The notes beneath the pieces were generated by a model. That model did no database searches. It saw only the letters and a program-made list of their open reading frames with translations, and was not told where the DNA came from. A stretch of 64,000 nt of DNA from a virus. A program made the translations under genes and the position numbers. Below are positions 38,138 to 51,603 of the stretch, piece after piece (position 1 is the stretch's first letter; the number at the start of each line of letters is the position of its first letter). The stretch is taken from IMG/VR virus record IMGVR_UViG_3300047560_000724, positions 16,580-80,579 of that record; one strand, given 5' to 3'.

Positions 38138-38634
38138 TATATGTCTCCTTCATAGTTCTTTGGCACAATCAAACCACTGTCTAATTCAATGCCGTTAATC
38201 GTATGGGGCTCGTTTTCATCGTAAGTCCAACCGAGCACCTTCATCATTTTATGCTTGACCATCAAGTTAGGGCTACGAAAAACTTCAGTATCACGGAAGC
38301 CCATCATAACTCCAACCTCGCAGACTGCACCCGAACGGCACACACCTGCAACACAATGCACAACAACATTCATTCGTTGTTCCATTGCATGTTCTAGCAA
38401 TCGAACAAGTCTTTCGGCTTGCTCGTCTGTAACCTTAAAGTCGTCGCCCCACTTGTCGTCTTGTTCCAAATCCAAGAACTCAAACTGATGAGTTTCACGG
38501 AACTGATGCCTAGGAGTAGGGAACTCCATAGCAGGGTCAACTATTTGAATGAGCATACTGTTAATGCCCGCATCAATGTGATGGCCTTTTGGAATGTCAG
38601 CAAACGAGACATTTTGAATCCACGGGGTTAACAT
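38137..38634 (-). CDS. Cys-dependent (dual-specificity/tyrosine-type) phosphatase
   Basis: VHCVAGVCRS (HCxxGxxRS). Confidence 0.85.
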   Translation of the reverse strand: MLTPWIQNVSFADIPKGHHIDAGINSMLIQIVDPAMEFPTPRHQFRETHQFEFLDLEQDDKWGDDFKVTDEQAERLVRLLEHAMEQRMNVVVHCVAGVCRSGAVCEVGVMMGFRDTEVFRSPNLMVKHKMMKVLGWTYDENEPHTINGIELDSGLIVPKNYEGDI

Positions 38635-38743: not shown

Positions 38744-40153
38744 TTACAGGTCGTAGCGTGGGACCATTACAGTCTTAAGCATAATACCTTCTGGAGTGAA
38801 CTGATCAAGATCAGCACTCAAAAGAGCTGTCATAATGCTTGGGCTGAACCCTGACACCAAAGCAGCTCCTGTCTTGTCTGCCTTAACAGGTACATTGTCT
38901 GAACTGTTTAGGTTCCAGAAAACAATCTGTGGCATTGCATAGCCAGCGGCTTCGAACTTGCGTTCGATCATTTCCATTGCGCTATCGTCGTAACGGGCGC
39001 ATTGGTTGAATTGCATGTCTGACAAGATTAGTAGCATAGCTGGCATATCGCTAGCAGGAACATTTCCCTTAACTGCTGTGCTTAGGATCTTATCCATAGC
39101 GGCATGCAGGTTAGTACTCATTTCCCAGTTGCTACGAGACATTTGGTCAACCTTTTCAACAATGTTACCCTTTAGAGTAACAAGTTGTGGCTTGCTTGAG
39201 AAAGTCAAGAATGTGTCCTTGAACGCACCCTTGTTCTTGTCTGCAAGGTACAAGCCTAGGCTTACGGCTACATCAAGACAACGAACACTAGTGTCACGAC
39301 CTGCTGGGCAAGTCATAGAACCAGATACATCAACTAGAGGTAGGATACTTGCGTTGCCTACATAGTTTGGCAGAGCATCCCATTGTGCGATCACATGGTT
39401 AGTCTCTGTCTTGTCCAAAGTCTTGTAGCCGTGTGCGATGCCCTTTAGGACATCATGTGGGAAGATTGCGTTGGCGTTAACCTTAACAGTCTTATCCCCT
39501 GCCACCAACTTGGCCACATACTCTGCAAACGCAGGTGTGTGACGGTTGAATGCCTTCTTGTATTGGCGAGCCGCTACAGAAGGAACATGGCTAAAGTTGA
39601 TGTTATCCCAATCTCCTGCACACATTTGGGTTTCAACAACCTTTGTAAGTGCCACAAGGCTCTTACGGTATTGCTTTGGAGTCATGCCAAAGAAGGCACG
39701 GATCTCAGCGGCAATCTGACCCTTACGAGGAGTCCACTTTGCAGCCAAACCGTTCTTAGCACGAAGGGCATCGCCCAACATGGTATAAGCGGCTGACTTC
39801 AGAACTGGGTCTGAGAAGACAAAGATGTCATCCCAACGACCAACTTCTGGAACCTTGCGAAGCAAAGCCAAAGCGGCGTCTGGGTCACGCTTTTCTAGAT
39901 GAACTAGAATGTCGCGGAACAGTTGACGCTCACCTGCACCACCACGGACATCTCGTGCCCATTGTGCAATGCGAAGTGCAACATCAGAGTTTTCCACATA
40001 GGCTGCAGTGAAGTCAGCCTTAATATCCTTACCACGGCTTGCGCCGATCTTGTAGAACAAGTCAACACACGCCTTAGCTGTGGACTTACGAGCCTTCATG
40101 CCATTGGCAGTACGGGCTTCTTGATTTGCGATTGCGTTTACAAATGCGTTCAT
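38744..40153 (-). CDS. TROVE/Ro60-like protein with vWA domain (DUF2828 type)
   Basis: Helical N-terminus RDVRGGAGER...GRWDD...AAKW.PR; MIDAS DVSGSM...STN...LSDMQF. Confidence 0.75.
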   Translation of the reverse strand: MNAFVNAIANQEARTANGMKARKSTAKACVDLFYKIGASRGKDIKADFTAAYVENSDVALRIAQWARDVRGGAGERQLFRDILVHLEKRDPDAALALLRKVPEVGRWDDIFVFSDPVLKSAAYTMLGDALRAKNGLAAKWTPRKGQIAAEIRAFFGMTPKQYRKSLVALTKVVETQMCAGDWDNINFSHVPSVAARQYKKAFNRHTPAFAEYVAKLVAGDKTVKVNANAIFPHDVLKGIAHGYKTLDKTETNHVIAQWDALPNYVGNASILPLVDVSGSMTCPAGRDTSVRCLDVAVSLGLYLADKNKGAFKDTFLTFSSKPQLVTLKGNIVEKVDQMSRSNWEMSTNLHAAMDKILSTAVKGNVPASDMPAMLLILSDMQFNQCARYDDSAMEMIERKFEAAGYAMPQIVFWNLNSSDNVPVKADKTGAALVSGFSPSIMTALLSADLDQFTPEGIMLKTVMVPRYDL

Positions 40154-40163: not shown

Positions 40164-40220
40164 CACAGAATGTATTGTTTTTCGATATGCTTGAAAATTG
40201 AAAGTTGCTGTTAACATTCT
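40164..40220 (-). ncRNA. Stem-ACAGCAA module copy 1 (5' UTR of Ro60-like gene)
   Basis: AGAATGT-TA-ACAGCAA...ACATTCT-GTG abutting the GAGG SD. Confidence 0.7.
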
Positions 40221-40728: not shown

Positions 40729-40806
40729 TGGAGCAACGGGAGGGATTTGAACCCCCGGTTTTACGGATTTGCAATCCGTTGCATTGGGCCGCTCTGCCAC
40801 CGTTGC
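40729..40806 (-). tRNA. tRNA-Cys(GCA)
   Basis: Cloverleaf, loop TTGCAAA, encoded CCA. Confidence 0.9.
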
Positions 40807-40811
40807 ATATT

Positions 40812-40887
40812 TGGTGGGTCCTGACGGGCTCGAACCGCCGACATTCTGCGTGTAAGGCAGACGCTCTACCAACTGAGCTAAGGACCC
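40812..40887 (-). tRNA. tRNA-Val(TAC), canonical
   Basis: Cloverleaf, loop CTTACAC, CCA. Confidence 0.95.
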
Positions 40888-40894
40888 AAATGCT

Positions 40895-41125
40895 TTACTT
40901 GACTCGCTTCAAGTACTCTTTACCAATCTTACCTTCTTGAATTTCTTCTAAGGCTGTAATGATAGGAAAAATATGTTCTCGCTTAGTGCTTTCTTGATTG
41001 TGTCTTTTGATTTCTCTAGACCTTGCCGCAGCAATTAATACAAGATCAAATCTATTCTCCCCTGCATTAGTAACACACTTGTCAGTGTCAATACCAGTAC
41101 CACGACTATCACTTAGCTTTCTCAT
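40895..41125 (-). CDS. rpoZ: RNA polymerase omega subunit-like
   Basis: NRFDLVLIAAARSREI...TALEEIQEGKI. Confidence 0.8.
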   Translation of the reverse strand: MRKLSDSRGTGIDTDKCVTNAGENRFDLVLIAAARSREIKRHNQESTKREHIFPIITALEEIQEGKIGKEYLKRVK

Positions 41126-41153
41126 ATAATATCCTCTTTGTGTATTTAATACT

Positions 41154-41228
41154 TGGTCCCGTTACCAAGAATCGAACTTGGATCTAATTCTTAGGAGGAA
41201 CTTGTTCTATCCATTGAACTATAACGAG
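41154..41228 (-). tRNA. tRNA-Arg(CCT)
   Basis: Cloverleaf, loop CTCCTAA, CCA. Confidence 0.9.
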
Positions 41229-41229
41229 A

Positions 41230-41319
41230 TGGTCCCCCGTTGAGGAATCGAACCTCATCCTGGACCTTATCTAGATTAAGGTGTTATAAGCACCCCTGCT
41301 CTCCATGAGCTAACGGGGG
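41230..41319 (-). tRNA. Atypical tRNA-Ile(TAT) with long variable region
   Basis: CCCCCGT/ACGGGGG acceptor, loop CTTATAA, about 20-nt variable region. Confidence 0.7.
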
Positions 41320-41326
41320 ATGAAGT

Positions 41327-41400
41327 TGGTTGCGGGTCCCGGAATCGAACCAGGATCTCGAGCTTATGAGACTCGTGAGTTACCGTTTCTCTAACCCGCT
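41327..41400 (-). tRNA. tRNA-Met(CAT) with 1:72 mismatch (initiator-like)
   Basis: Loop CTCATAA, A1xA72; lacks three G-C anticodon-stem pairs. Confidence 0.8.
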
Positions 41401-41406
41401 ATAAAT

Positions 41407-41483
41407 TGGTCGGAGTACAAGGATTCGAACCTTGGACCCCCTGGTCCCAAACCAGGTGCGCTACCAGACTGCGCCACACTCCG
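41407..41483 (-). tRNA. tRNA-Pro(TGG), canonical
   Basis: Loop TTTGGGA, CCA. Confidence 0.95.
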
Positions 41484-41485
41484 AA

Positions 41486-41698
41486 TTAAACTGTTGTTTT
41501 CTTTTTCCTAGTCTTCTTAACTGGAATTTCTGCACTCGCTACACTAGCAATAGCTTCTTGGACATCACGCATAAGGGCTTCGTCGTCCCATATAAGTTCT
41601 GTACTTCCGTCTTCAAATGTCTTAACGGTTAGGTGACTACCTTGATTAATCTTTGGCCATCCGTTAGCTTCTACATTTTTTAATTTCTTAGTCGCCAT
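41486..41698 (-). CDS. Hypothetical protein
   Basis: AAGGA SD, 70 aa between tRNAs. Confidence 0.7.
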   Translation of the reverse strand: MATKKLKNVEANGWPKINQGSHLTVKTFEDGSTELIWDDEALMRDVQEAIASVASAEIPVKKTRKKKTTV

Positions 41699-41716
41699 TT
41701 GCTAGTCCTTAAAATT

Positions 41717-41789
41717 TGGAGCGGGTAGTCGGATTCGAACCGGCTTCTTTAGCTTGGAAGGCTAAGTCCTCTCCCAGGAGAATACCCGC
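41717..41789 (-). tRNA. tRNA-Gly(TCC), atypical D arm
   Basis: Loop CTTCCAA, U73, CCA. Confidence 0.85.
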
Positions 41790-41992
41790 ATAGTGTTTAG
41801 CTACTCCCACCACAGGAGCCCTAAACTGAGCTGTTACTCTGTCCACTAGCCTTTCCATCTAGACGGTGCTGAGGTCCGCCTTTGTGATTTCTCAAGTCGC
41901 TTTACACAAGCCTTGCGGTAGATCCAATGCACCGAGCTATTAAGGTTTAAGCAATTACCTAACTCTATTACGCTGAGTTAACGCGGGGTTTT
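41790..41992 (-). ncRNA. Unassigned structured intergenic RNA candidate
   Basis: About 200 nt, relatively GC-rich, no ORF in the track, several hairpins between tRNAs. Confidence 0.4.
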
Positions 41993-42068
41993 TGGTGCCC
42001 CTTGTCCGACTCGAACAGACCACCTACTGATTACAAATCAGTTGCTCTACCAGATGAGCTAAAGGGGC
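41993..42068 (-). tRNA. tRNA-Thr(TGT), canonical
   Basis: Loop TTTGTAA, CCA. Confidence 0.93.
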
Positions 42069-42074
42069 GTATTG

Positions 42075-42335
42075 TTATTTAATTTCGTTACCTGCTAGGT
42101 CTGCTTTTCCAGTCTCATAAAGTTCTTTGCGTCTTGCAAATTCATCTTCACTTAAACCGTGCCAACCAATACACTTGCCAGTTGGGCTACGGCCACACCC
42201 GCATCTTCCAACTTCGTCTATATTTTCTTTTACTCTTACTTGCATATCTTTATCTTTTTTAAAAATTGCATCCCAGTTACTATCAAATGTAGTTAATGGA
42301 ACACTTAACGGTCTTGCTTTACTGCCTTTACCCAT
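42075..42335 (-). CDS. CDGSH-type Fe-S/zinc-finger protein
   Basis: CGCGRSPTGKCIGWH; AGGAG SD before MGKG. Confidence 0.7.
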   Translation of the reverse strand: MGKGSKARPLSVPLTTFDSNWDAIFKKDKDMQVRVKENIDEVGRCGCGRSPTGKCIGWHGLSEDEFARRKELYETGKADLAGNEIK

Positions 42336-42363
42336 TAGATAATCTCCTGTGTGTTTGGTGGAC

Positions 42364-42750
42364 TTATCGTTTAAGTCCCCTTGCCTGTCTGCCCTTACCT
42401 TTATTCTTAGCAACAAATGTATCTGTTTGACTATGGCAGTTTGGACACAACAGTCTTAAATTTTTTGGCTTATCATTACCTGCATCACCGTCTATATGAT
42501 CTAATTGTAGCACTAAAGGTACATCGTTGTAAACCCCTTCATTGCCACAACTTACACATCTATAACCATGCAAGTGTGTTAAGCATCTTATTAAAGTTCT
42601 TCTTGTAGAAATTTCGCCTTTTAAAAACTTAGACAAAGTTTCTGTTTCAAATTGATGTTGCTGCTGACAAGTGTTATTACAATACTTGTTTGCATAATTC
42701 CTTTTTACAGGATTCTCTTTACCGCAACATAAACAATTGAATGTATTCAT
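42364..42750 (-). CDS. HNH endonuclease (free-standing, homing-type)
   Basis: LQLDHIDG...N....NLRLLCPNCHSQT; N-terminal Cys finger. Confidence 0.9.
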   Translation of the reverse strand: MNTFNCLCCGKENPVKRNYANKYCNNTCQQQHQFETETLSKFLKGEISTRRTLIRCLTHLHGYRCVSCGNEGVYNDVPLVLQLDHIDGDAGNDKPKNLRLLCPNCHSQTDTFVAKNKGKGRQARGLKR

Positions 42751-42790
42751 AATGTAGTCCTCTACATTATTTATACAGAACTCTACATTT

Positions 42791-43471
42791 TTAAAGAACT
42801 TTGGTGGAGGTAACAGGGATCGAACCTGCGACATTTTGGTTGCAAACCAAACGCTCTCCCAGCTGAGCTATACCCCCGAATAACGCTTTTTTAGCATCAT
42901 CAAAATAAACAGCGCCTGGATTAACATCTCTTAATGTTAGCACCATTCTTTCATTTTTTGATTTGCTGTTATCAAAATCGTGAAAAATTTCTGTATTAAA
43001 AAGAATACACTCGCCCTGTTGTGCGGTCATACGCTTTAATGGAGTATGTTTTTTAGAATCAAATCCTAAACATTCTCTACTTTGTTTCCTTTCAATAGGA
43101 TCAGGATCAATTGGGTATTCTTTTAACTCTTCATCGGAATACCAACTTGTAACACAATCGTTATCAAGAATCTTAACTGTATAATTAAGACTGTAGCGAT
43201 GGTCTAACCCGTCCTTATGTGCTCTATAATAATATCCTGGCTGTGTTGTAAACAACGACACTCGCCATTGATTTAATTTTAGTTCTTCATTCAATGGTAT
43301 ACTATCCATAATATCTTTTGCTTGTGCTGTAGGATATATGTGATGTGTAAATCCTTTTGTAAAGGACATACCCCATACATACGCCAGGCATTTAGTTATT
43401 ACAGTATCTAGTCCTTCGTGTGTAAAACGAATATAGTACGGACTACAGTCTTCTATTATAGTATACTTCAT
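42791..43471 (-). CDS. 2OG-Fe(II) oxygenase/cupin-like protein reading through tRNA-Ala
   Basis: AHKD...FH.F.N...ER.VLT.R. Confidence 0.7.
   Translation of the reverse strand: MKYTIIEDCSPYYIRFTHEGLDTVITKCLAYVWGMSFTKGFTHHIYPTAQAKDIMDSIPLNEELKLNQWRVSLFTTQPGYYYRAHKDGLDHRYSLNYTVKILDNDCVTSWYSDEELKEYPIDPDPIERKQSRECLGFDSKKHTPLKRMTAQQGECILFNTEIFHDFDNSKSKNERMVLTLRDVNPGAVYFDDAKKALFGGIAQLGERLVCNQNVAGSIPVTSTKVL
42802..42877 (-). tRNA. tRNA-Ala(TGC), canonical
   Basis: G3:U70, loop TTTGCAA, CCA. Confidence 0.95.
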
Positions 43472-43481
43472 TGTATATTTA

Positions 43482-43558
43482 TGGCTCCCCGAGCTGGGCT
43501 CGAACCAGCGACACCTTGATTAACAGTCAAGTGCTTCTACCAACTGAGCTATCAGGGA
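43482..43558 (-). tRNA. tRNA-Asn(GTT), canonical
   Basis: Loop CTGTTAA, G73, CCA. Confidence 0.93.
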
Positions 43559-43564
43559 ATATTC

Positions 43565-44014
43565 TCATATCTCTTTATGTAGCCTATAAAATTTAGGGTA
43601 CATACCGACCTTGGCCGCTGATGCTAAACGACTCTTGTTGTTTACTTCAACAAGACTACTTAACATATAAGCGCCTAATTTTTTACAATCTGCCTCGTAG
43701 TACTCGTGGCAAATTTGATTTAATCCTCTTCCTCGGAATTCTGGTTCAGTAAAACTAAGAACTAACCAGCCCATTCGTTGATCTGGATAGTATTCATAAG
43801 CAATACCGCCTTGAACATTACCACTAGTATCTTGCACCCAAACAACTCTGTTTGAAATCTTAAATGCAAAAGTGGGTAATGAAAACCCTTTATCAACAAG
43901 TTCAGCCCAAACTTTTAAAAACGGAGCAACAACTGGAGTATATTGCATCGTATCCGATTGCCAAACTTCAATTGGGTTACCTAGCTTGTCTTGAGCATCT
44001 GCTATCTTCTTCAT
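43565..44014 (-). CDS. GNAT-family acetyltransferase
   Basis: FTEPEFRGRGL...N..R...AKVG. Confidence 0.8.
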   Translation of the reverse strand: MKKIADAQDKLGNPIEVWQSDTMQYTPVVAPFLKVWAELVDKGFSLPTFAFKISNRVVWVQDTSGNVQGGIAYEYYPDQRMGWLVLSFTEPEFRGRGLNQICHEYYEADCKKLGAYMLSSLVEVNNKSRLASAAKVGMYPKFYRLHKEI

Positions 44015-44055
44015 ACTTACACCTTTAAAAATGTAAATTACTTATCACTACTAAT

Positions 44056-44149
44056 TGGCGGTGAGCGAGAGATTCGAACTCTCGATGCAGGTTTATGCCC
44101 ACATGCCTCCTTAGCAGGGAGGTACCTTCGGCCACTCGGTCAGCTCACC
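44056..44149 (-). tRNA. tRNA-Ser(GCT)
   Basis: Long variable arm, loop CTGCTAA, G73. Confidence 0.95.
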
Positions 44150-44150
44150 A

Positions 44151-44352
44151 TTAGTTGTATTGTCTTGTTATGGACAACAATAACCCTATTGCCGTTTGCT
44201 TTTAACGAGCACAACTTGTATGAGTCCTCCTGCAGAAGGTTGTCTCACTTTCATTATGCATCAACAGTATTGGCCGCGCTAGCTAGACGGAGGACCCATT
44301 GACTGTGCATTACCCAGGTGTACACTGAGTTTTTCCAAAACAATACAACTAA
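44151..44352 (-). ncRNA. Unassigned 200-nt RNA closed by a long perfect stem
   Basis: TTAGTTGTATTGT/ACAATACAACTAA. Confidence 0.55.
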
Positions 44353-44437
44353 TGGTGGACAGGGACGGATTCGAACCATCGTAGCCTGAGGCGGCAGATT
44401 TACAGTCTGCTGGTATTAACCACTCACCCACCTGTCC
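44353..44437 (-). tRNA. tRNA-Tyr(GTA), canonical
   Basis: Loop CTGTAAA, variable arm, CCA. Confidence 0.95.
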
Positions 44438-44443
44438 ATTGTT

Positions 44444-44528
44444 TGGTGCGACCTCCCGGAATCGAACCGGGACGACTTTCGTCGAGAGATTTTAAGTCTC
44501 TTGTGTCTACCTATTTCACCAAGGTCGC
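44444..44528 (-). tRNA. tRNA-Leu(TAA)
   Basis: Loop CTTAAAA, variable arm. Confidence 0.95.
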
Positions 44529-44533
44529 ATATC

Positions 44534-44761
44534 TTACTGACTTCTGCGCTTCATCCAAGTGTAGTCTACACCGTCTGGACACTTTCCGTCATTAACGCTG
44601 TCAGCACCAAAGATGCCAACAATTTCCATTTCGTTACCTTTTATAGTAACAAATTCATTCATGTGCTTTGCAAGGTTCATTGCTTCTGCAAGTGTAAGAA
44701 CCTTAAATGTTTCTTCTTTACCTATTACTTTATACATTGTTAATTTTACTTTCTTTTTCAC
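44534..44761 (-). CDS. Hypothetical protein
   Basis: ORF between tRNAs; start uncertain. Confidence 0.6.
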   Translation of the reverse strand: MKKKVKLTMYKVIGKEETFKVLTLAEAMNLAKHMNEFVTIKGNEMEIVGIFGADSVNDGKCPDGVDYTWMKRRSQ

Positions 44762-44787
44762 TCATCACAACAATGACGACAATTAAA

Positions 44788-44861
44788 TGGCGTACCCCCA
44801 GGGACTCGAACCCCGACCGACAGTTTTGGAGACTGTAATGCTGCCATTACACTAGGGATAC
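44788..44861 (-). tRNA. tRNA-Trp(CCA)
   Basis: Loop CTCCAAA, G73. Confidence 0.9.
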
Positions 44862-44868
44862 ATGTCCT

Positions 44869-44960
44869 TGGCGGAAGCTGAGAGATTCGAACTCTCGGAC
44901 GGGATAAACCGTCGGCAGTTTTCAAGACTGCTGCAATAAACCGGACTCTGCCAAACTTCC
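44869..44960 (-). tRNA. tRNA-Ser(TGA)
   Basis: Loop CTTGAAA, long variable arm. Confidence 0.95.
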
Positions 44961-44965
44961 ATTAT

Positions 44966-45048
44966 TGGTGCCCCCTCCGAGACTCGAACTCGGACGCTCT
45001 CGCACTGGCTTCTAAGACCAGCGTGTCTACCAATTCCACCAAAGGGGC
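44966..45048 (-). tRNA. tRNA-Leu(TAG)
   Basis: Loop CTTAGAA. Confidence 0.95.
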
Positions 45049-45057
45049 ATAATTCTT

Positions 45058-45153
45058 TACCATATAGAAACACACTAGCGGGCATATCTAGGTTGCCGCT
45101 TATCGCACCTTAGTCCTAGTACTGAGTATAGGCTAGTGCATTTTTATATGGTA
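45058..45153 (-). repeat. Family-B stem element copy 1
   Basis: Plus-strand ACCATATAGAAACACACT...TATATGGT closing stem. Confidence 0.65.
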
Positions 45154-45224
45154 CTCGGTAGGGGAATCGAACCCCTCTTCCCGCCGTGAAAGGGCGGTGT
45201 CCTAGACCGATAGACGAACCGAGC
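45149..45224 (-). tRNA. tRNA-Glu(TTC), canonical
   Basis: Loop CTTTCAC. Confidence 0.95.
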
Positions 45225-45284
45225 AAATTAACCGTTAAATTTTTAATGAACAATTATACTACTGTGTTAACAGCGTATGTATCT

Positions 45285-45313
45285 ATTATATAGCCTACCA
45301 AGCATTGTGTCAA
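45285..45313 (-). promoter_or_regulatory. Internal sigma70 promoter of the distal tRNA block, with a boxA-like element
   Basis: TTGACA-17-TATAAT; TGTTCATTAAAA at 45241-45252. Confidence 0.75.
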
Positions 45314-45344
45314 TACTTTTTTGGCTAACAATGCAAATATATTT

Positions 45345-45419
45345 TGGCCGGGCTTAGAGGAATCGAACCTCTACCTGCGGTTTCGAAGACCGTAATGATA
45401 TCCATTTCACCAAAGCCCG
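45345..45419 (-). tRNA. tRNA-Arg(TCG)
   Basis: Loop CTTCGAA. Confidence 0.85.
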
Positions 45420-45432
45420 CAATAAATATTCT

Positions 45433-45975
45433 GTGAAAAATTATTATCCAATACTAGTTGACAATTTAGAATCATTAAGGGAAAAAGTACTTGCCAATCT
45501 TCCTGAACGAGTTTTTAACTTTACTGCCGTTACTTACGACCATGCACTTGCTTATAACATAGCAAGACTACCCGAAGTAGTTTCTGCACTCGAACAGTTT
45601 GGAGGTATTAAACAAATTGAGTCAATTGCGTTTAATGTAACACCACCTAACCGTACTGGGAAGATACATACCGACACTGGCGGATATGCTTACACTTTTA
45701 ATATTCCATTATTAAATTTTAGAAACACATTCTTACGGTTACACAGGAAAACTAAAGAACCTATTTCTAAAACTTATAAAGATCCGCAAGGTAATGATAT
45801 CAATTATCACTTATACAATAAAACAAACTGTGTGTTAGATCAAACAATAGAAACGCTTGAACCACATATATTTAATACAACAGTTCCACATCAAGTAGTT
45901 AATCCTAACGATACTATCAGAATTAATATGCTGATTAGATTGAAGTTAGATACTGACTTTAGTAAATTTAATTAA
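45433..45975 (+). CDS. 2OG-Fe(II) oxygenase/cupin-like protein, antisense to the array
   Basis: IHTD...FNTTVPHQV.N...R. Confidence 0.7.
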   Translation: MKNYYPILVDNLESLREKVLANLPERVFNFTAVTYDHALAYNIARLPEVVSALEQFGGIKQIESIAFNVTPPNRTGKIHTDTGGYAYTFNIPLLNFRNTFLRLHRKTKEPISKTYKDPQGNDINYHLYNKTNCVLDQTIETLEPHIFNTTVPHQVVNPNDTIRINMLIRLKLDTDFSKFN

Positions 45976-45976
45976 C

Positions 45977-46051
45977 TGGCACCGCGAGTTGGATTCGAAC
46001 CAACATCTTACACTTTAGAAGAGTGTTGCCTATCCCTTAGACTATCGCGGT
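45977..46051 (-). tRNA. tRNA-Arg(TCT)
   Basis: Loop CTTCTAA. Confidence 0.9.
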
Positions 46052-46052
46052 A

Positions 46053-46126
46053 TGGTGCTCTTAGATAGAATCGAACTATCATTACCTCCATACCAAAGAG
46101 GCGTTCTACCATTTAACTATAAGAGC
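46053..46126 (-). tRNA. tRNA-Thr(GGT)
   Basis: Loop TTGGTAT. Confidence 0.85.
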
Positions 46127-46128
46127 AA

Positions 46129-46207
46129 TGGTACCCCTGCTCCGATTCGAACGGAGAACAACTTCTCCTTTTGAGAGAGACGACTTTACCAATTTGTCCA
46201 CAGGGGC
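46129..46207 (-). tRNA. tRNA-Leu(CAA) with short variable region
   Basis: Loop CTCAAAA, 7-nt variable region. Confidence 0.85.
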
Positions 46208-46264
46208 ATAGAATTTGTCTTAGATTGTTCACCGCACAATCTAAGAAAGCGGGGGTCTGTTGAA

Positions 46265-46477
46265 TTTGTAAGTAGTTCCCCCATCGTTATAGGAACCATT
46301 CACCCGTGTAATTAAGCCGGCCGGGACTCGGTACGCCACTAGGGATACTAGTCCAGTTTAGCAACCTGTTTGCAACCGTCCTTCCGGGCGGCCGGGAGTT
46401 GAACCCGCAACCTTCTACTATTTCGGTCCTTCGAAGAAACCTAGATAGCGTGACATTCTCTTGCTGACACTTACAAA
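46265..46477 (-). ncRNA. Unassigned 213-nt RNA, possible divergent stem-CAGCAA module
   Basis: Closing stem TTTGTAAGT/ACTTACAAA, then GT-CAGCAA; T-arm-like GGG TTCAACT CCC. Confidence 0.55.
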
Positions 46478-46482
46478 ACTGT

Positions 46483-46558
46483 TGGGGTGCTAGATGGGGA
46501 ACGATCCCATACTATCGCTTTCACAGAGCGAGGTGCAGACCACTACACTACTAACACC
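46483..46558 (-). tRNA. tRNA-His(GTG) with encoded G-1
   Basis: Loop CTGTGAA, C73; atypical T loop ATCGTTC. Confidence 0.85.
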
Positions 46559-46566
46559 ATAGAAAA

Positions 46567-46684
46567 AACAGGATACATTTTATAGCGCACTACCAATTGT
46601 GCTAACTTGGCATGAAGCCAAATGTTGGACTCGAACCAACAACCTCTCGCTTAGAAGGCGAAAATTGTTTGCTGTTAGTATCCT
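46567..46684 (-). ncRNA. Stem-ACAGCAA module copy 4 carrying circularly permuted tRNA-Arg(TCT)
   Basis: Order anticodon arm, T arm, loop-closed 7-bp acceptor, D arm inside AGGATAC/GTATCCT. Confidence 0.85.
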
Positions 46685-46689
46685 AAACT

Positions 46690-46765
46690 TGGAGCGGGAG
46701 ACGAGGTTCGAACTCGCGACATTTACCTTGGCAAGGTAATGCTCTACCAACTGAGCTACTCCCGC
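46690..46765 (-). tRNA. tRNA-Gly(GCC)
   Basis: Loop TTGCCAA. Confidence 0.95.
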
Positions 46766-46773
46766 ATGAGACT

Positions 46774-46850
46774 TGGCGCGGTGGACGGGGCTCGAACCCG
46801 CGACCCTTGGCGTGACAGGCCAATACTCTGACCAACTGAGCTACCACCGC
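46774..46850 (-). tRNA. tRNA-Asp(GTC), canonical
   Basis: Loop CTGTCAC. Confidence 0.95.
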
Positions 46851-46873
46851 GTAATTTTAATTATCTTTTATTT

Positions 46874-46947
46874 TGGTTCCTCCAACAAGAATCGAACTTG
46901 TAATGACCGGTTATCAGCCGATTGTTATACCATTTAACTATAGAGGA
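46874..46947 (-). tRNA. tRNA-Ile(GAT)
   Basis: Loop CTGATAA. Confidence 0.88.
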
Positions 46948-46953
46948 ATAATT

Positions 46954-47028
46954 TGGTGGTGATGAGTAGAGTCGAACTACCACCAGACTCCGTATGAAGG
47001 AGGCGCACTACCATTATGCTACATCACC
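46954..47028 (-). tRNA. tRNA(CAT), Met or Ile2
   Basis: Loop TTCATAC. Confidence 0.8.
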
Positions 47029-47121
47029 ATATAGAAACACACTCGTGCCTTTTTCGTCAGAGGAAGGTGGCCTTTCCCAGTACCCGGACTATGTCCGGTG
47101 TCGAATATGTTTTCATATGGT
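47026..47121 (-). repeat. Family-B stem element copy 2
   Basis: Same 18-mer and closing stem. Confidence 0.65.
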
Positions 47122-47123
47122 AA

Positions 47124-47211
47124 TACCATATAGAAACACACTGGCTTGCAAGACTTCTACTAACCTTTCGATGGATGTCGCAGTTAGTATTCAATGTGTT
47201 TTTATATGGTA
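47124..47211 (-). repeat. Family-B stem element copy 3
   Basis: Same 18-mer and closing stem. Confidence 0.65.
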
Positions 47212-47280
47212 GGGGCACAGAGAATCGAACTCTGATTAATAGGTTAAAAGCCTACTACTTTGCCGTTAAGTTATACCCCC
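47207..47280 (-). tRNA. tRNA-Lys(TTT)
   Basis: Loop CTTTTAA. Confidence 0.9.
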
Positions 47281-47283
47281 GTA

Positions 47284-47358
47284 TGGTCCACGCTCTGAGA
47301 ATCGAACTCAGTTCCTCCGGGTAAGAGCCGGTTACTTCGCCACTAAAGTTTAGCGTGG
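47284..47358 (-). tRNA. tRNA-Lys(CTT)
   Basis: Loop CTCTTAC. Confidence 0.85.
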
Positions 47359-47419
47359 TTGGTCGTAATTAAATTGATTTAATGTGCCAACCAGGACCAA
47401 TACGGGGTCAAGGTCGACA

Positions 47420-47440
47420 CTAGCGTTTACCGCGTTTCAT
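47420..47440 (-). other. Minigene MKRGKR* followed by a hairpin
   Basis: AAGGAG SD, ATG AAA CGC GGT AAA CGC TAG; stem 47384-47420. Confidence 0.5.
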
Positions 47441-47470
47441 GTCGTTCTCCTTTTGAACATTGTTGAAATA

Positions 47471-47535
47471 AACAGGATGTATTTTTACGGTTTTGATTAA
47501 AAGTCAAATGTATAAATTTTTGCTGTTAACATCCT
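47471..47535 (-). ncRNA. Stem-ACAGCAA module copy 5 carrying isolated Lys(UUU) anticodon stem-loop
   Basis: AGGATGT/ACATCCT enclosing TTTGA CTTTTAA TCAAA. Confidence 0.8.
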
Positions 47536-47540
47536 TAACT

Positions 47541-47614
47541 TGGTGCTCCATCGAGGAATCGAACCCCAATTGCCGGACTACAAAACCGGTGTCTTACCAT
47601 TAAACGAATGGAGC
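47541..47614 (-). tRNA. tRNA-Thr(TGT), variant copy
   Basis: U31xU39, loop TTTGTAG. Confidence 0.8.
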
Positions 47615-47621
47615 AAATTTA

Positions 47622-47737
47622 AACAGGATAGAATTTAACATAGTGCTACCGTTACACCAAACCTTTCGGCTGCGGAGTCGAACCGCTCCCTTACTTTTCA
47701 AGAGTAGTGAGTTAATTATTTTTGCTGTTACTATCCT
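47622..47737 (-). ncRNA. Stem-ACAGCAA module copy 6 carrying permuted tRNA mimic with Ser(UGA) loop
   Basis: TACT CTTGAAA AGTA, GCGG TTCGACT CCGC, AGCC GAAA GGTT, D-arm-like GTGTAACGGTAGCAC. Confidence 0.8.
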
Positions 47738-47741
47738 TAAC

Positions 47742-47815
47742 TGGTACCTCGTTACAGAATCGAACTGTCATCAACGGTATGTAACACCGTGGTTCTGCCA
47801 TTAAACTACCGAGGC
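47742..47815 (-). tRNA. tRNA-Val(TAC), variant copy
   Basis: Loop GTTACAT (G32, U38). Confidence 0.8.
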
Positions 47816-47821
47816 ATAAAT

Positions 47822-47897
47822 TGGTCTCCCTACCAGGATTCGAACCTGGACCACACGGCCCCAAACCGTGTACGCAACCTGATAACGCTTTAGAGAG
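47822..47897 (-). tRNA. tRNA-Pro(TGG), variant copy
   Basis: Loop TTTGGGG, A8. Confidence 0.8.
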
Positions 47898-48053
47898 ATA
47901 AAGGTTGGGCGCCACACTATCCTCCTGGGAGGACTCGCATGATTGTCTCGAATAGTCAAGTCTAATACCACTCCTAACCGTTCTTGCGCTGTCACATAGC
48001 TGAGTCACTATGCTAGGTTGGGTGGGACTCTAAACTACCGTCTATCCCGAAAT

Positions 48054-48128
48054 TGGTGGAGGCCGAGGGAGTTGAACCCTTCTAGTCAGCAACCTTGCAA
48101 GGGTTACCCGTAGCCCGCTACTGCCCCC
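48054..48128 (-). tRNA. tRNA-Ala(TGC)-like, aberrant D arm
   Basis: G3:U70, 7-bp anticodon stem, loop CTTGCAA, D region GTAGCGGGCTAC. Confidence 0.7.
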
Positions 48129-48138
48129 AAATTCTTTT

Positions 48139-48215
48139 TGGCACCCGAGGAAGGATTCGAACCTCCGACTCCAATGTTCGTAGCATTGTACTCTAGTCCA
48201 CTGAGTTACACGGGT
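48139..48215 (-). tRNA. tRNA-Arg(ACG)
   Basis: Loop CTACGAA. Confidence 0.9.
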
Positions 48216-48300
48216 ATAAATTAGTGTTAGTTTCTATACCACCCATTGAAACTAACAAACATTGAGAAGCCATGCATCAAAACAAGACTTCTATTTGCCC

Positions 48301-48376
48301 TGGTGCCGCCTCTAGGGATCGAACCTAGTTCCACGGTGCTTCAAACCGGTGCTATGACCACATCAGCTAAAGCGGC
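48301..48376 (-). tRNA. tRNA-Phe(GAA)
   Basis: Loop TTGAAGC. Confidence 0.85.
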
Positions 48377-48380
48377 AAAT

Positions 48381-48455
48381 TGGCGCCACGGACGAGAATC
48401 GAACTCGCCTTAGTCGGATAGACAATCCGTTGCCCTCCCAGAGAACTACCGTGGC
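48381..48455 (-). tRNA. tRNA-Asp(GTC), variant copy
   Basis: Loop TTGTCTA (U37). Confidence 0.8.
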
Positions 48456-48501
48456 ATATAAGTCTACACATCCTGCCTCTATGAGGCAGGGGTAGCATAG
48501 T

Positions 48502-48577
48502 TGGTATCGCGGACGGGAATCGAACCCGCCTAGTCAAGTTGAAAGCCTGATGACCTAACCCAGAAGTCCACCGCGAT
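48502..48577 (-). tRNA. tRNA-Glu(TTC), variant copy
   Basis: Loop CTTTCAA. Confidence 0.85.
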
Positions 48578-48583
48578 ATAATA

Positions 48584-48642
48584 AACAGGATACATTCTTT
48601 TTCACCATTTGAAAGTTGATTAAGATTTGCTGTTAGTATCCT
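48584..48642 (-). ncRNA. Stem-ACAGCAA module copy 7 carrying Glu(UUC)-like anticodon loop
   Basis: AGGATAC/GTATCCT enclosing ATCA-A-CTTTCAA-A-TGGT. Confidence 0.75.
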
Positions 48643-48647
48643 TAAAC

Positions 48648-48721
48648 TGGCACCCGGACTAGGGATCGAACCTAGACTAACAGAGTCAAAGTCTGTTGTG
48701 CTACCATTACACAATCCGGGA
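48648..48721 (-). tRNA. tRNA-Gln(TTG)
   Basis: Loop CTTTGAC, G73. Confidence 0.9.
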
Positions 48722-48899
48722 ATAAATATTTGTGTGAAGACTTATAATCACATAACCCCACAGGGATTATACTTTCATCTTTGCTTGTACGAAGGTGTGT
48801 GCTGTGTCATGGTACAAGATGTATATGATAACACTTACTTTGAACTGCAATACTTCACAGATGTCAACAAAGCCTTACGCTTTATCAACAACTTGTAAT

Positions 48900-48978
48900 T
48901 GGCTCCGTGTGTGAGGATCGAACTCACCTAATCACTGATTAACAGTCAGGTCCTTGCACCATGCTTGGATTTCACGGA
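48900..48978 (-). tRNA. tRNA-Asn(GTT), variant copy
   Basis: Loop CTGTTAA; atypical D region. Confidence 0.75.
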
Positions 48979-48987
48979 ATAGAATTT

Positions 48988-49076
48988 TGGTGGACCTTGA
49001 TAGAATCGAACTACTTGCCAGCCACCCCACTTAACAATGGCCACCGGGTTACAGCCGGCGATGGGGAACAAGATCC
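48988..49076 (-). tRNA. D-armless tRNA-Tyr(GTA)-like RNA
   Basis: 8-bp acceptor/4-bp T stem, loop CTGTAAC, CCCCAT can pair with variable-loop GTGGGG. Confidence 0.7.
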
Positions 49077-49099
49077 ATAACACACTCTTTAGAATGTGT

Positions 49100-49343
49100 G
49101 TATTAAAGTACACTTGATTAAGGAATTCCGGACTAGGCGCTAGCACCGTCTGCTAGATCGTCTGCCTTCATCATTACTGCCTACATACTCCGCCGCTTCT
49201 CTGAGCATTTCTGCTCGGCTTCATGACCTGGACTAGACTAGTATCCGTCGATACTACAATCTTCCCAGAGCCCTAACGGTGTAGGTAACCTTAACCTCCA
49301 TATACGGCGTGGAGCCATATACGAATAAAGTATACTTTAATAC
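49100..49343 (-). ncRNA. Unassigned 244-nt RNA closed by long stem
   Basis: GTATTAAAGTA/TACTTTAATAC enclosing several hairpins. Confidence 0.55.
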
Positions 49344-49454
49344 GCTGTAATTTTTCACCCCACAAAAGGAGCTTCATCCTACAGGCCGCCCATTTGCCCA
49401 TGTTTTAAGTGCGGGCTAGGATCTCGTTTCCTATACACACTTTTTCGAAAGTCT

Positions 49455-49491
49455 TAAAAGCAAAACCCCAGGGTGTTTAGTCCTGGGGTCC
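49455..49491 (-). terminator. Attenuator terminator upstream of the tRNA array
   Basis: GACCCCAGG/CCTGGGGTT followed by TTGCTTTT. Confidence 0.75.
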
Positions 49492-49513: not shown

Positions 49514-49660
49514 TTAGTTACACGATCCTCCACTGGACCCCGGGGTAATCCCCTCTGGTGTGCGATCATATGACAGACTATTAATCGCTAACCAAGAGGT
49601 GGGCATCACGCCTGCCTGTTTGGCTATCGTATTAAAATGTTGTCTATTAAATGATTGCAT
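49514..49660 (-). CDS. 48-aa leader peptide containing all 20 amino acids
   Basis: MQSFNRQHFNTIAKQAGVMPTSWLAINSLSYDRTPEGITPGSSGGSCN*, read manually. Confidence 0.65.
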   Translation of the reverse strand: MQSFNRQHFNTIAKQAGVMPTSWLAINSLSYDRTPEGITPGSSGGSCN

Positions 49661-49720: not shown

Positions 49721-49933
49721 ATTGTAGCACCTTCCGGTGCTCCTGTCAACAACTTTTGGAAAATTCTTTTGTTGTATTTTTACAACGCTTTGAAAGTTAC
49801 ATTGTTTGCTAACTTGTTTCTATTGTACAGTTATTTAGTTCTGTTGTCAACCTGGTTTTGCATTTTTGGCAAAAAGATTTACACCAACTATCTAACTAGT
49901 CTCTATTGTACTGTATATATGTCGTTGTGTCAA
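49721..49933 (-). promoter_or_regulatory. Three tandem sigma70 promoters
   Basis: TTGACA-17-TACAAT at 49749-49721, 49850-49822 and 49933-49905. Confidence 0.85.
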
Positions 49934-49977: not shown

Positions 49978-50463
49978 TTAACTTTCTACTACACCGACTA
50001 GGTGCAAGCGGGCCTGCTCGGAACAATTCATGAAAGTATGTAGTTTGCGTGTGTCAGTCCAGTAAACTGAGTCAACACTCAAGTGTTGTGGTGCGGAATC
50101 CTTAAACACAAAGTAACAGTTAGGGTTGGTCACTAACGGAATGTGAACCCTTGGTGTTTCATCCCTGTGCATACTGTAACAAGCATAAGGGCCAACCCAC
50201 ATGAGTCTTGTTCTTAGCAGCCGGTACTTAGTGATTAGCTCTTCAAAGACTGTGCCCTTAAAGAAAGGATTTAGCTCAGTGTAACTAGTTTCGTTGCCCT
50301 TACTTCTGCCGACCGCACTCGTCCACGCATCTTCACCTAGTTTAAACTGAAGGCCACATTGTTTACCCTTGTGGCCATAGTCAGTCCATTGTATATCTAA
50401 TTCAAGATCAGTGTACTTTGTTAAGATAGCAGAAGAACTTATACTATCTAATACTTTGATCAT
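49978..50463 (-). CDS. Asp/Asn beta-hydroxylase-like 2OG-Fe(II) oxygenase
   Basis: HRD..PRVHIPL.TN...H.F.N....RLHLV. Confidence 0.8.
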   Translation of the reverse strand: MIKVLDSISSSAILTKYTDLELDIQWTDYGHKGKQCGLQFKLGEDAWTSAVGRSKGNETSYTELNPFFKGTVFEELITKYRLLRTRLMWVGPYACYSMHRDETPRVHIPLVTNPNCYFVFKDSAPQHLSVDSVYWTDTRKLHTFMNCSEQARLHLVGVVES

Positions 50464-51584
50464 GAACGACCAATTCTTGACGGAATTGCTTTAACTTGTG
50501 CCCCAGTATTTGTTTGGTAGGCAATTAATGCGTTTTCATGCGGAGTGGTTAGGTAACTTACTAGTTCCGGAATTGTCAGTACCACGGCTTGACTGTCAGA
50601 ACTTCCTTGTGCAGCCTTTTGGATCATTTTATAGTAAATGCCCTTGCGTGTTTTAACATCATCGTAAATTTCTTCAAAACCAGTATACTTTCTAGCTTGG
50701 ATAATCTCAGGCCAGTTCTTAACAGTCATCATAGGTTTGTAGAACTGTTGAAACAAACTCCACCAGCGGTACGGGTGCTTGATGTTGTTACAGAACACTT
50801 CATAAATTTGCTCTTGTACTGCATAAAAGCGTTGACAAACATCGTCTGTAAGATATGACACAGTTAGTTCTGGAGTATACAAGAAATACTTACTAGTACC
50901 TTCGTAGCCTTGTTCCATCATGTGTCGCATAATAGGTTGTGGTGTTTGGATCCATACAGGTACTGTTGCTCCGTTAGCCATCCGTGGTAAACGCTTAGAA
51001 ACATAATCTGGGCTAATTGGTTGCATCATTGGGTCACCCCCGCCCATGATGTAGCAAAAATCCTGACCAACAAAGTCCATTGTAGCACATTGTACTAAGG
51101 TAGCTAAGTTTGTAAACCCGTATTTTCCTGCGTAACGCTGTGCAAGCCCGCGATAATATGCATCTAAATTAATTGTAAATTGAATGCTTTCGATTCCGTA
51201 TCTGCGGCAAAACTCATAAGCTGTTTTAATATCATGCTCGTTGATCAGTTCGTTAGCAACATCAAACATATGAACAATAACAACCTTAAATGGGACTTTT
51301 GCTTCCATGAGGCTCAAACAAACCATTTGGCTATCACTACCACCGCTGAGGCCAACAATGATCGGTTTTGTTGCTTTATTAGCGATTAGACTAGCGGCAT
51401 GAATACATTCTTCACGGAATGATTTAACTTCGCGAGTAGTATGTCCTAATTGCAATTTAAATGTTCTCGAAGGATCTGGGTCATTGTACCATTCGTCTTG
51501 GTTAGATACATGGTCCTCGTATGGATCCACTCCCCATCCCCATTTAAAATGGTTGCCTTCTGTATAGTCGAATTTTAATTCCAT
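50460..51584 (-). CDS. PP-loop ATP pyrophosphatase-like, group 2
   Basis: LSGGSDS; paralog of 51604 and 55815. Confidence 0.7.
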   Translation of the reverse strand: MELKFDYTEGNHFKWGWGVDPYEDHVSNQDEWYNDPDPSRTFKLQLGHTTREVKSFREECIHAASLIANKATKPIIVGLSGGSDSQMVCLSLMEAKVPFKVVIVHMFDVANELINEHDIKTAYEFCRRYGIESIQFTINLDAYYRGLAQRYAGKYGFTNLATLVQCATMDFVGQDFCYIMGGGDPMMQPISPDYVSKRLPRMANGATVPVWIQTPQPIMRHMMEQGYEGTSKYFLYTPELTVSYLTDDVCQRFYAVQEQIYEVFCNNIKHPYRWWSLFQQFYKPMMTVKNWPEIIQARKYTGFEEIYDDVKTRKGIYYKMIQKAAQGSSDSQAVVLTIPELVSYLTTPHENALIAYQTNTGAQVKAIPSRIGRS

Positions 51585-51603
51585 GATGTGCGTTCTTTAA
51601 AAG

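Follow-up and report, generated by a model that had tools for sequence, protein, structure and literature searches.

Eight anticodons occur twice in a viral tRNA array, once in a bacteria-type gene and once in a conserved, divergent phage-type gene

The tRNA cluster of phage T4 consists of eight tRNAs that are co-transcribed with the stable species 1 and 2 RNAs (rnaC and rnaD), and to our knowledge T4 has no paired tRNA tiers. In T5-like phages and cluster C1 mycobacteriophages a large tRNA array lies behind strong promoters with tRNA-Tyr as its first gene, and the tRNAs differ from host-like tRNAs by substitutions at anticodon-loop positions 32, 37, and 38; phage tRNAs evade or outnumber anticodon nucleases (PMC10264068, PMC11464382, PMC11555353). 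The subject of this study is a tRNA array in a 64,000-nucleotide stretch of viral DNA (IMG/VR record IMGVR_UViG_3300047560_000724, positions 16,580 to 80,579), hereafter called the window. The array is like those of the T5-like and C1 phages in the features just listed, and like the T4 cluster in combining tRNAs with small non-tRNA RNAs. Unlike the T5-like and C1 phages, however, this one genome has, for eight anticodons, a host-like tRNA as well as a divergent one, and several of the divergent copies differ in the body of the tRNA and not in the loop. Unlike T4, it has 39 genes and includes Y-RNA-like modules with a shared handle. Phage tRNA arrays, the nuclease-evasion idea, 8/4 tRNAs, and polycistrons of irregular tRNAs are already known. 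In the literature searched we found no phage in which eight anticodons each have a host-like and a remodelled isoacceptor as a conserved pair, no D-armless tRNA-Tyr with a covarying D-to-variable helix, and no leader-peptide attenuator before a tRNA operon.

The window is part of an 80.6-kb contig (39.8% G+C) and contains tail-fibre and baseplate genes of the T4 type. When the whole array was compared by megablast with 50,697 phage records, no related genome was found, and the matches were all short and each to a single canonical tRNA. The gene for a Ro60-like protein beside the array has more than 340 relatives at 86–93% identity in IMG/VR, some of them on contigs of 300–356 kb, and among public sequencing runs the best DNA holders are labelled freshwater metagenomes. 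Because there is no close cultured phage, and because of the size of the contigs with relatives and the freshwater label of the best holders, the source reads as a fragment of an uncultured freshwater jumbo phage. The small shares found in aquatic, marine, and lake runs were not used for the conclusion on habitat. A Bacteroidota host, hinted at by the protein name of one source, was not adopted, given the TTGACA/TATAAT-type promoters conserved here; promoters of Bacteroidota differ from that type. Related loci were gathered with the Ro60-like protein and a spacer motif, and were then searched with each element of the array.

The array comprises 39 tRNA-type genes on the minus strand of positions 40729–49076. 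ARAGORN called 37 tRNAs in the interval 40729–48721, each of them on this strand, and the Rfam tRNA model (RF00005) called 34 at its gathering threshold of 29 bits. An earlier note, made by reading the sequence, had stated that eight anticodons occur twice; this was borne out for Val, Pro, Thr, Ala, Asn, Tyr, Glu, and Asp by the tRNA calls, together with comparative evidence for the second copies of Asn and Tyr. We use the prefix v for the variant, or phage-type, copy of each pair, which lies in the promoter-proximal block (49076–47207), and c for the canonical, or bacteria-type, copy with the same anticodon. Six of the variant copies (Thr, Val, Pro, Ala, Asp, and Glu) were called directly by ARAGORN; vAsn and vTyr were missed even at 80% thresholds. 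The RF00005 threshold was passed by vGlu, vThr, vPro, vVal, and vAsp, whereas vTyr, vAsn, and vAla failed it and had no match to this model at E ≤ 10.

The promoter-proximal copy scored lower in all eight pairs (p = 0.004; Table 1), and the tRNA-model scores of the proximal block as a whole were below those of the distal block (Mann-Whitney p = 0.001). The note had described the variants as aberrant and confined to 47541–49076, and their scores and positions agree with that description. Each loop feature that it listed was seen: U31·U39 and G38 in vThr, G32 and U38 in vVal, G38 and A8 in vPro, and U37 in vAsp. The variants stray further from the textbook than it said, because vTyr has no D arm, vAla has a miniature one, and vAsn has a D stem of 3 bp.

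The partners of a pair are 58–68% identical and therefore are not recent duplicates; they are best regarded as different tRNA lineages that share an anticodon. Between the c copies and bacterial tRNA genes or tRNAs of unrelated phages, identity is 85–95% (for cPro, 94.9% with Polaromonas; for cVal, 92–93% with Acinetobacter and 91% with Neisseria; for cAsn, 95% with a tRNA of a Burkholderia phage). No match of this kind was found for the proximal block. A more sensitive search with the block found only tRNAs of other phages at 75–80% identity, from T5-like phages for vVal and vThr (about 75–78%) and from T4-like Acinetobacter phages for vAsn. From these matches we concluded that the two tiers are phage-type and bacteria-type. 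Two of the canonical copies, cTyr and cAsp, were found in few relatives and look like later additions.

Partners have the same discriminator base in eight of eight pairs. In all eight variants the acceptor stem ends in the discriminator and CCA, the anticodon loop has 7 nucleotides and includes U33, and the T loop follows the UUCGAnU pattern. The first base pair is standard in six of them (the exceptions are A1:U72 in vGlu and G1·U72 in vVal), and position 37 is a purine in all except vAsp.

The structure of vTyr was derived from an alignment of 14 sequences, 12 of them distinct. The sequence CCCCA, at the expected start of the D stem, pairs with TGGGG on the 3′ side of the anticodon arm. This helix, designated P, covaries (CCCTA/TAGGG, CCCTG/CAGGG, and CCCAA/TTGGG) and continues unbroken into a 6-bp anticodon stem with the loop CUGUAAM. 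Helix Q, of 3 bp (GNC/GN′C) with a middle pair that takes four forms, crosses helix P in a pseudoknot-like arrangement. Helices 1–4 are 100% paired in the 12 distinct sequences, and 10 pairs have changed on both sides; the covariation score was 0.42, compared with 0.16 after shuffling and at most 0.08 when the partners were slid. A covariance model of vTyr gave 21 matches of at least 95 bits in related loci, the next best match scoring 30.8. Columns 1–8 pair with columns 79–86 in all sequences, with covariation at four of these pairs. One sequence group has a T stem of 4 bp and the other a T stem of 3 bp, so that the full 12-bp (8 + 4) branch is present only in the first.

Six related loci span the region from the leader to the Ro60-like gene, and in three of them (L001, L012, and L041) vTyr is the only Tyr tRNA found. 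The ARAGORN sets of these three loci cover 19 amino acids and lack Tyr only; vTyr fills the gap. At L027:6314–6391 and L060:3285–3364, the leader is followed first by another kind of odd Tyr tRNA, also missed by ARAGORN, with a tRNA-Sec-like D arm consisting of a 6-bp stem and a 4-nucleotide loop. The presence of two different odd Tyr bodies at the first slot indicates that the Tyr body has been rebuilt more than once, with the ends and the anticodon loop kept.

Mitochondrial tRNA-Ser(AGY) without a D arm and its truncated kin have lost or shrunk the D arm, have a longer anticodon arm, keep the acceptor and T arms, and work with specialised mitochondrial factors and ribosomes. In the loss or shrinkage of the D arm, vTyr and vAla are like these truncated mitochondrial tRNAs (reviewed in PMC7609411), but unlike them they would need bacterial machinery. 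All known bacterial tRNAs are cloverleaf, according to a 2024 paper (PMC11551756), and in the literature searched we found no description of tRNAs like vTyr or vAla for bacteria or phages. The 8/4 tRNA-Ser and tRNA-His of phage clusters, described together with polycistrons of irregular tRNAs (Mukai et al. 2016, PMC5389517), resemble vTyr in having an 8-bp acceptor stem and a short T stem, although the 12-bp branch of vTyr is limited to one sequence group. Unlike the 8/4 tRNAs and the allo-tRNAs, vTyr has no self-closing D arm, and it has the D-to-variable helix, a Tyr anticodon, and A73. The 8/4 tRNAs of Mukai et al. reportedly keep the D arm and a long variable arm, and the allo-tRNAs are said to be mostly of the serine type.

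The D stem of vAsn has a 13-nucleotide loop and is followed by a 4-bp anticodon stem; six pairs have changed on both sides among eight sequences. It is about 80% identical to the annotated tRNA-Asn of the cultured Acinetobacter phage vB_AbaM_Konradin (MN648195.1) and related T4-like phages, and these tRNAs share its D region (ATCCGAGC-WRGG-TGCATGGA) and its 7:66 mismatch. In the 3-kb stretch of Konradin that was read, this type is the only annotated Asn tRNA, whereas here it coexists with a canonical one. For vAla, G3·U70 is invariant (17 of 17 sequences), 13 of the 21 pairs have changed on both sides, and five anticodon-stem pairs covary on both sides. The vAla signature had a single match among 185,579 prokaryote genomes (one per species), in a locus without an ARAGORN tRNA. 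This match looks like chance, as it is outside any tRNA call, and the signature is to all appearances absent from the prokaryote genomes searched.

Among the variants that still pass the tRNA model (vAsp, vGlu, vThr, vPro, and vVal), at least 97% of the helix cells are paired across relatives. Their odd features are conserved as well: the UUUUGUAGU loop of vThr, A8 with G37 and G38 in vPro, A1:U72 in vGlu, and U37 of vAsp in 13 of 15 distinct homologs. Relative to their bacteria-type partners, vThr, vVal, vPro, and vAsp differ at positions 31/39, 32, 37, or 38. Such conserved oddities occupy positions at which tRNAs are read by nucleases and modification enzymes. Covariation in all eight variants indicates that they are conserved structured genes.

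All of the variants lie in unit 1, behind three tandem promoters, and seven of the canonical duplicates lie in unit 2, behind an internal promoter. The order in unit 1 is promoters, leader open reading frame (ORF), terminator, structured leader, vTyr, and the phage-type tRNA block. The leader ORF is kept in 17 distinct relatives as a peptide of 44–62 amino acids with a DR(T/L)PE motif. The terminator was not listed by the scan that gave the promoters; its loop has, by our own reading, 9 nucleotides, and the limit of that scan was 8. The antiterminator covaries in 17 relatives, (G/A)GGGTCC pairing with GGACCC(C/T) and, in L117, GGGTTC with GAACCC, and there is covariation between the arms of the terminator too. 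The leader combines a conserved short ORF with an intrinsic terminator and with an antiterminator pairing in which the ORF takes part and which excludes the terminator. The layout is that of a leader-peptide attenuator, and it may function as one. The leader downstream of the terminator is covered by RNA-library contigs. At a low threshold ARAGORN gave a tRNA-like fold at 49295–49371 in this part of the leader.

The hexamers of the internal promoter are kept in 23 of 23 distinct relatives, and its spacer is free to vary. It is a perfect TTGACA-17-TATAAT promoter at 45285–45313, where the earlier note had placed it, and seven of the eight canonical copies are downstream of it. Just upstream of it are the opposite-strand gene at 45433–45975 and tRNA-Arg(UCG) at 45345–45419. 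The assignment of the tiers to separate units, also proposed in that note, agrees with our results, and both units are conserved (17 relatives for the unit 1 leader, 23 of 23 for the unit 2 promoter). The further proposal of that note, a constitutive and an inducible set, is a conjecture from sequence.

In the trp, his, and pheST attenuators, a promoter is followed by a short leader ORF and an intrinsic terminator with an alternative pairing inside the ORF. The leader described here has the same layout, and both of its pairings covary. It differs from those leaders in that it would gate a tRNA operon and not biosynthetic or synthetase genes, and in that no single regulatory codon is repeated in a run in its ORF.

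The rest of the proximal block contains single-copy phage-type tRNAs, which include the phage's only Gln, Phe, and Lys genes. The name of a backup set, which the earlier note had given to the proximal tier, does not suit a block that holds the only tRNAs for these three amino acids, nor a vTyr that is the sole Tyr tRNA of L001, L012, and L041. The Lys(CUU) gene barely passes the Rfam model and is conserved in relatives; it shares C1:G72 and A8-A9 with vPro. Metatranscriptome contigs from four studies cover vTyr, vAsn, vVal/vPro, vGlu, and spacers at 95% identity or more. The depth of RNA contigs is zero over the ORFs inside the array; this was not used as proof because relatives may lack those ORFs (joints skip 42877–43482).

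These results are consistent with a composite array made of two long-conserved operons, phage-type unit 1 and bacteria-type unit 2, in which eight heavily used anticodons would each be served by one tRNA of each type. We take the phage-type copies to be working tRNAs that keep CCA, the discriminator, the anticodon, and (for Ala) G3·U70, with either the body or the anticodon loop rebuilt. The benefit would be robustness: the busiest codons would retain an adaptor unlike host tRNAs in the features read by nucleases or modifying enzymes, and the host-like copy would be kept in case a defence targets the phage-type form. A bacterial Schlafen nuclease may cut phage tRNA-Ala better than the host one (PMC13056530), which gives a reason to keep both types of adaptor. 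If a usable tRNA is lacking and ribosomes stall, the leader would let more transcription run on into unit 1. Consistent with a role in defence, tRNA-Tyr, the first gene behind the unit 1 promoters and the one remodelled repeatedly, is a known defence target (PMC11555353), and the Ro60-like fold beside phosphatase, phosphoesterase, and kinase genes provides an RNA-conflict context. We rank this explanation, a two-operon array whose phage-type and bacteria-type adaptors form a robustness hedge, first among those considered and give it a probability of about 45%; charging, decoding, regulation, and defence evasion are inferred.

Several observations weigh against the hedge. The anticodon loops of vGlu, vAla, vAsn, and vTyr are ordinary 7-nucleotide loops without differences of the above kind from the partner, so that escape through the anticodon loop cannot explain all eight pairs. 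Nuclease resistance of the variants is pure conjecture, and a D-armless vTyr may or may not work with EF-Tu and the bacterial ribosome. The match between tier and operon is inexact because canonical tRNAs (cAsp, Gly, Ile, Met, and others) are found in unit 1 too. The promoters of both units are of the sigma-70 type and do not point to a difference in timing. The contigs that provide the RNA evidence are assemblies and belong to relatives; they therefore speak for presence, not for level, processing, or charging. Finally, codon demand is highest for the anticodons that are duplicated (74 ORFs of the contig, p = 0.0004; the top four are Ala, Val, Asp, and Glu), so that dosage also predicts which anticodons are doubled.

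This last point leads to an account in terms of dosage and history, in which an old phage-type set was inherited and bacteria-type genes were added later, both sets raising supply, and the oddities are tolerated drift with no role in defence. Besides the codon demand, it is supported by the small number of relatives with cTyr and cAsp, which look like late additions, and by the resemblance of the v copies to tRNAs of other phages and of the c copies to bacterial ones. Neutral drift, however, would not keep U37, G38, A8, helices P and Q, and the mini D arm through compensatory changes. The occurrence in relatives of at least two non-canonical Tyr bodies at the first slot looks like directed remodelling, and identical duplicates would be a simpler route to dosage. 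We rank this account second and consider it possible but rather unlikely. A more far-reaching form of the hedge can also be imagined, a self-regulating, defence-proof kit in which the remodelled tRNAs (the D-armless, pseudoknotted 8/4 vTyr and the mini-D-arm vAla) function with bacterial synthetases, EF-Tu, and ribosomes, the leader peptide senses a shortage of any usable tRNA, and the bacteria-like set is a hedge against nucleases that target phage-type tRNAs; in this full form the idea is doubtful.

Failure of the tRNA models by vTyr, vAla, and vAsn would also be expected if these three at least were non-decoding mimics, acting as nuclease decoys, as ligands of the Ro60-like protein, or as donors for aminoacyl-tRNA-dependent enzymes. 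The permuted tRNA-like and Y-RNA-like modules in the same block and the Ro60-fold protein encoded beside the array fit such a role, and some irregular tRNAs are charged yet unused in translation (PMC5389517). However, these three RNAs have normal 5′ and 3′ ends with CCA, a 7-nucleotide C/U-U-NNN-A-N loop, and the cognate anticodon and discriminator, and vAla has G3·U70. The acceptor branch of vTyr (8 + 4 = 12 bp) has, in one sequence group, the length that EF-Tu reads (PMC5389517), the other group having a 3-pair T stem, and vTyr completes the 19-amino-acid set in three relatives. Mimicry is ranked third, as improbable. Low or absent tRNA-model scores could finally mean that the variants are decaying pseudogenes of duplicated tRNAs, an outcome that the earlier note had allowed for if they proved to be unconserved. 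Instead, the variants recur in dozens of related jumbo-phage contigs, many compensatory changes preserve their helices, and we rejected this reading because of the covariation. With helix cells at least 97% paired, many double changes across relatives, 21 vTyr homologs at 95 bits or more on their own model, only 58–68% identity to the partners, and variants present in RNA libraries, decay is ranked last and is very improbable; the related loci differ from one another, which excludes that they are one sequence copied in assembly.

Phage tRNAs are now suspected of being counter-defence tools, on evidence from cross-genome comparison of phage and host tRNAs. A single genome that has eight pairs matched in anticodon and discriminator, in two separately promoted units and with many natural variants among relatives, allows a direct test of the idea. 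If the remodelled tRNAs decode, the known limits of the bacterial translation machinery would widen, and compact or orthogonal tRNA scaffolds could follow. A tRNA operon under a leader-peptide attenuator would, if confirmed, be a new use of an old regulatory device.

Table 1. Features of the tRNA array and its surroundings, with scores from the Rfam tRNA model (v, variant copy; c, canonical copy)
Feature	Position	Strand	Rfam bits	Description
Three tandem sigma-70-type promoters, unit 1	49721-49933	-		TTGACA-17-TACAAT, 11/12 each
Leader ORF	49514-49660	-		48 codons; antiterminator arm GGGGTCC at 49535-49541 in 3′ part
Intrinsic-terminator-like hairpin	49456-49491	-		CCCCAGG/CCTGGGG and U tract; left flank GGACCCC pairs with ORF arm
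Post-terminator leader	49081-49455	-		49331-49445 is a strongly conserved, covarying structured RNA, no Rfam match
vTyr(GUA)	48988-49076	-	none (tRNA-Sec model 21.7, weak)	8-bp acceptor stem, 3-4-bp T stem, no D arm, A73, CCA
vAsn(GUU)	48900-48978	-	none	6-bp acceptor stem and constant 7:66 mismatch, normal T arm, G73-CCA
tRNA-Gln	48648-48721	-		single-copy phage-type
spA	48578-48647	-		non-tRNA RNA
vGlu(UUC)	48502-48577	-	51.3	conserved A1:U72; double-changed pairs 7/22
vAsp(GUC)	48381-48455	-	39.8	U37, G73; double-changed pairs 11/23, 99.4% of cells paired
tRNA-Phe	48301-48376	-		single-copy phage-type
tRNA-Arg(ACG)	48139-48215	-		single-copy phage-type
vAla(UGC)	48054-48128	-	none (tRNA-Sec model 20.6, weak)	4-bp/4-nt D arm directly after position 7, 7-bp anticodon stem, 4-bp T stem, A73
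spX	47898-48053	-		non-tRNA RNA
vPro(UGG)	47822-47897	-	46.7	A8, G37, G38, C1:G72, A73; double-changed pairs 11/23
vVal(UAC)	47742-47815	-	42.6	G32, U38, G1·U72; double-changed pairs 10/19
spY	47615-47741	-		non-tRNA RNA
vThr(UGU)	47541-47614	-	52.4	conserved CCGG-UUUUGUAGU-CCGG (U31·U39, G38); double-changed pairs 6/20
spZ	47466-47540	-		non-tRNA RNA
tRNA-Lys(CUU)	47284-47358	-	30.0	single-copy phage-type
tRNA-Lys(UUU)	47207-47280	-		single-copy phage-type
cAsp(GUC)	46774-46850	-	69.1	sole canonical duplicate in unit 1
Weakly cupin-like ORF	45433-45975	+		inside array
Internal promoter, unit 2	45285-45313	-		TTGACA-17-TATAAT, 12/12
cGlu	45149-45224	-	53.9	ARAGORN, Rfam; unit 2
cTyr	44353-44437	-	58.2	ARAGORN, Rfam; unit 2
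GNAT acetyltransferase	43565-44014	-		inside array
cAsn	43482-43558	-	59.1	ARAGORN, Rfam; unit 2
226-aa ORF	42791-43471	-		no assigned function; inside array
cAla	42802-42877	-	68.6	ARAGORN, Rfam; unit 2
HNH endonuclease	42364-42834	-		inside array
cThr	41993-42068	-	64.6	ARAGORN, Rfam; unit 2
cPro	41407-41483	-	64.7	ARAGORN, Rfam; unit 2
tRNA(UAU)	41230-41319	-		90 nt
cVal	40812-40887	-	71.2	ARAGORN, Rfam; unit 2
Ro60-like gene (TROVE and vWA fold)	38744-40153	-		469 aa, DUF2828/DUF7788; directly downstream of array
Dual-specificity phosphatase	38137-38634	-		downstream of Ro60-like gene
Calcineurin-like phosphoesterase	37532-38137	-		downstream of Ro60-like gene
AAA_33 P-loop kinase	37059-37523	-		downstream of Ro60-like gene

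Four non-tRNA RNAs (spA, spX, spY, and spZ) are interspersed in the proximal block, within 47207–48721. spX, located between vAla and vPro, is a conserved structured RNA of about 155 nucleotides without an Rfam match; compensatory changes occur among its 10 distinct homologs. A tRNA-like RNA with circular permutation, spY is conserved with covariation in nine loci. Inside a 7-bp terminal stem (AAGGATAG/CTATCCT), which holds the whole module, a hairpin with a 7-nucleotide CUNNNAA loop is followed by a T arm, then by an acceptor-like stem with a GAAA, GCAA, or UUCG tetraloop, and last by a D arm. YrlA-type Y RNAs have the same element order, but spY is without the GNCGAA motif. The Rfam YrlA model gave weak matches over ordinary tRNAs only and none over spY.

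spZ and spA are RNAs of about 70 nucleotides with a common covarying terminal stem, GGATNN/NNATCC, and an invariant TAACAGC. The interior of spZ consists of a 5-bp stem and a 7-nucleotide loop, C-U-NNN-A-A, in which NNN is UUU, UCU, UGU, GCU, or GAU among relatives; it resembles an anticodon arm whose anticodon varies. Further copies of TAACAGCAA are present on the minus strand at 46669–46677 and 40205–40213, the latter about 50 nucleotides upstream of the start of the Ro60-like gene.

The Ro60-like gene is context and not part of the tiers. Its protein had no PDB sequence match, and the link to Ro60 therefore rests on the predicted fold only. For the predicted structure (predicted local distance difference test, pLDDT, of 90), the top Foldseek matches were all Ro60, with probability 1.0; the fold matches Ro60/TROVE and vWA over the full length, including Ro60 of Thermus phage phiLo. 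Relatives were found by tblastn in 711 phage records, and more than 6,000 cluster representatives in a large protein library matched the protein. The phosphatase, phosphoesterase, and kinase encoded downstream look like an RNA end-healing set. Within the array, at least the 226-amino-acid ORF is a strain-specific insertion, because RNA and DNA contigs of relatives join tRNA-Ala directly to tRNA-Asn.

Upstream of the unit 1 promoters, the minus strand of 49978–56867 encodes two proteins (374 and 386 amino acids) in which only a PP-loop ATPase N-terminal motif is recognised, a PhyH dioxygenase, and two cupin or Asp/Arg-hydroxylase-like proteins; the gene at 62195–63670 encodes a B12-binding radical SAM protein. 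Assignment of the PP-loop-like proteins as NAD synthase, MnmA, or TilS was rejected, as only the N-terminal motif matched, far below the cut-offs. A scan of viral contigs with the 374-amino-acid protein found no relative. Together, the genes of these two regions may constitute a modification cluster.

One further gene of the array, tRNA(UAU), has a long variable arm, a short D loop, and a 6-bp anticodon stem, and gave no Rfam tRNA match. It is conserved at 90–94 nucleotides in many relatives and recalls the allo-tRNA(UAU) species of Mukai et al.

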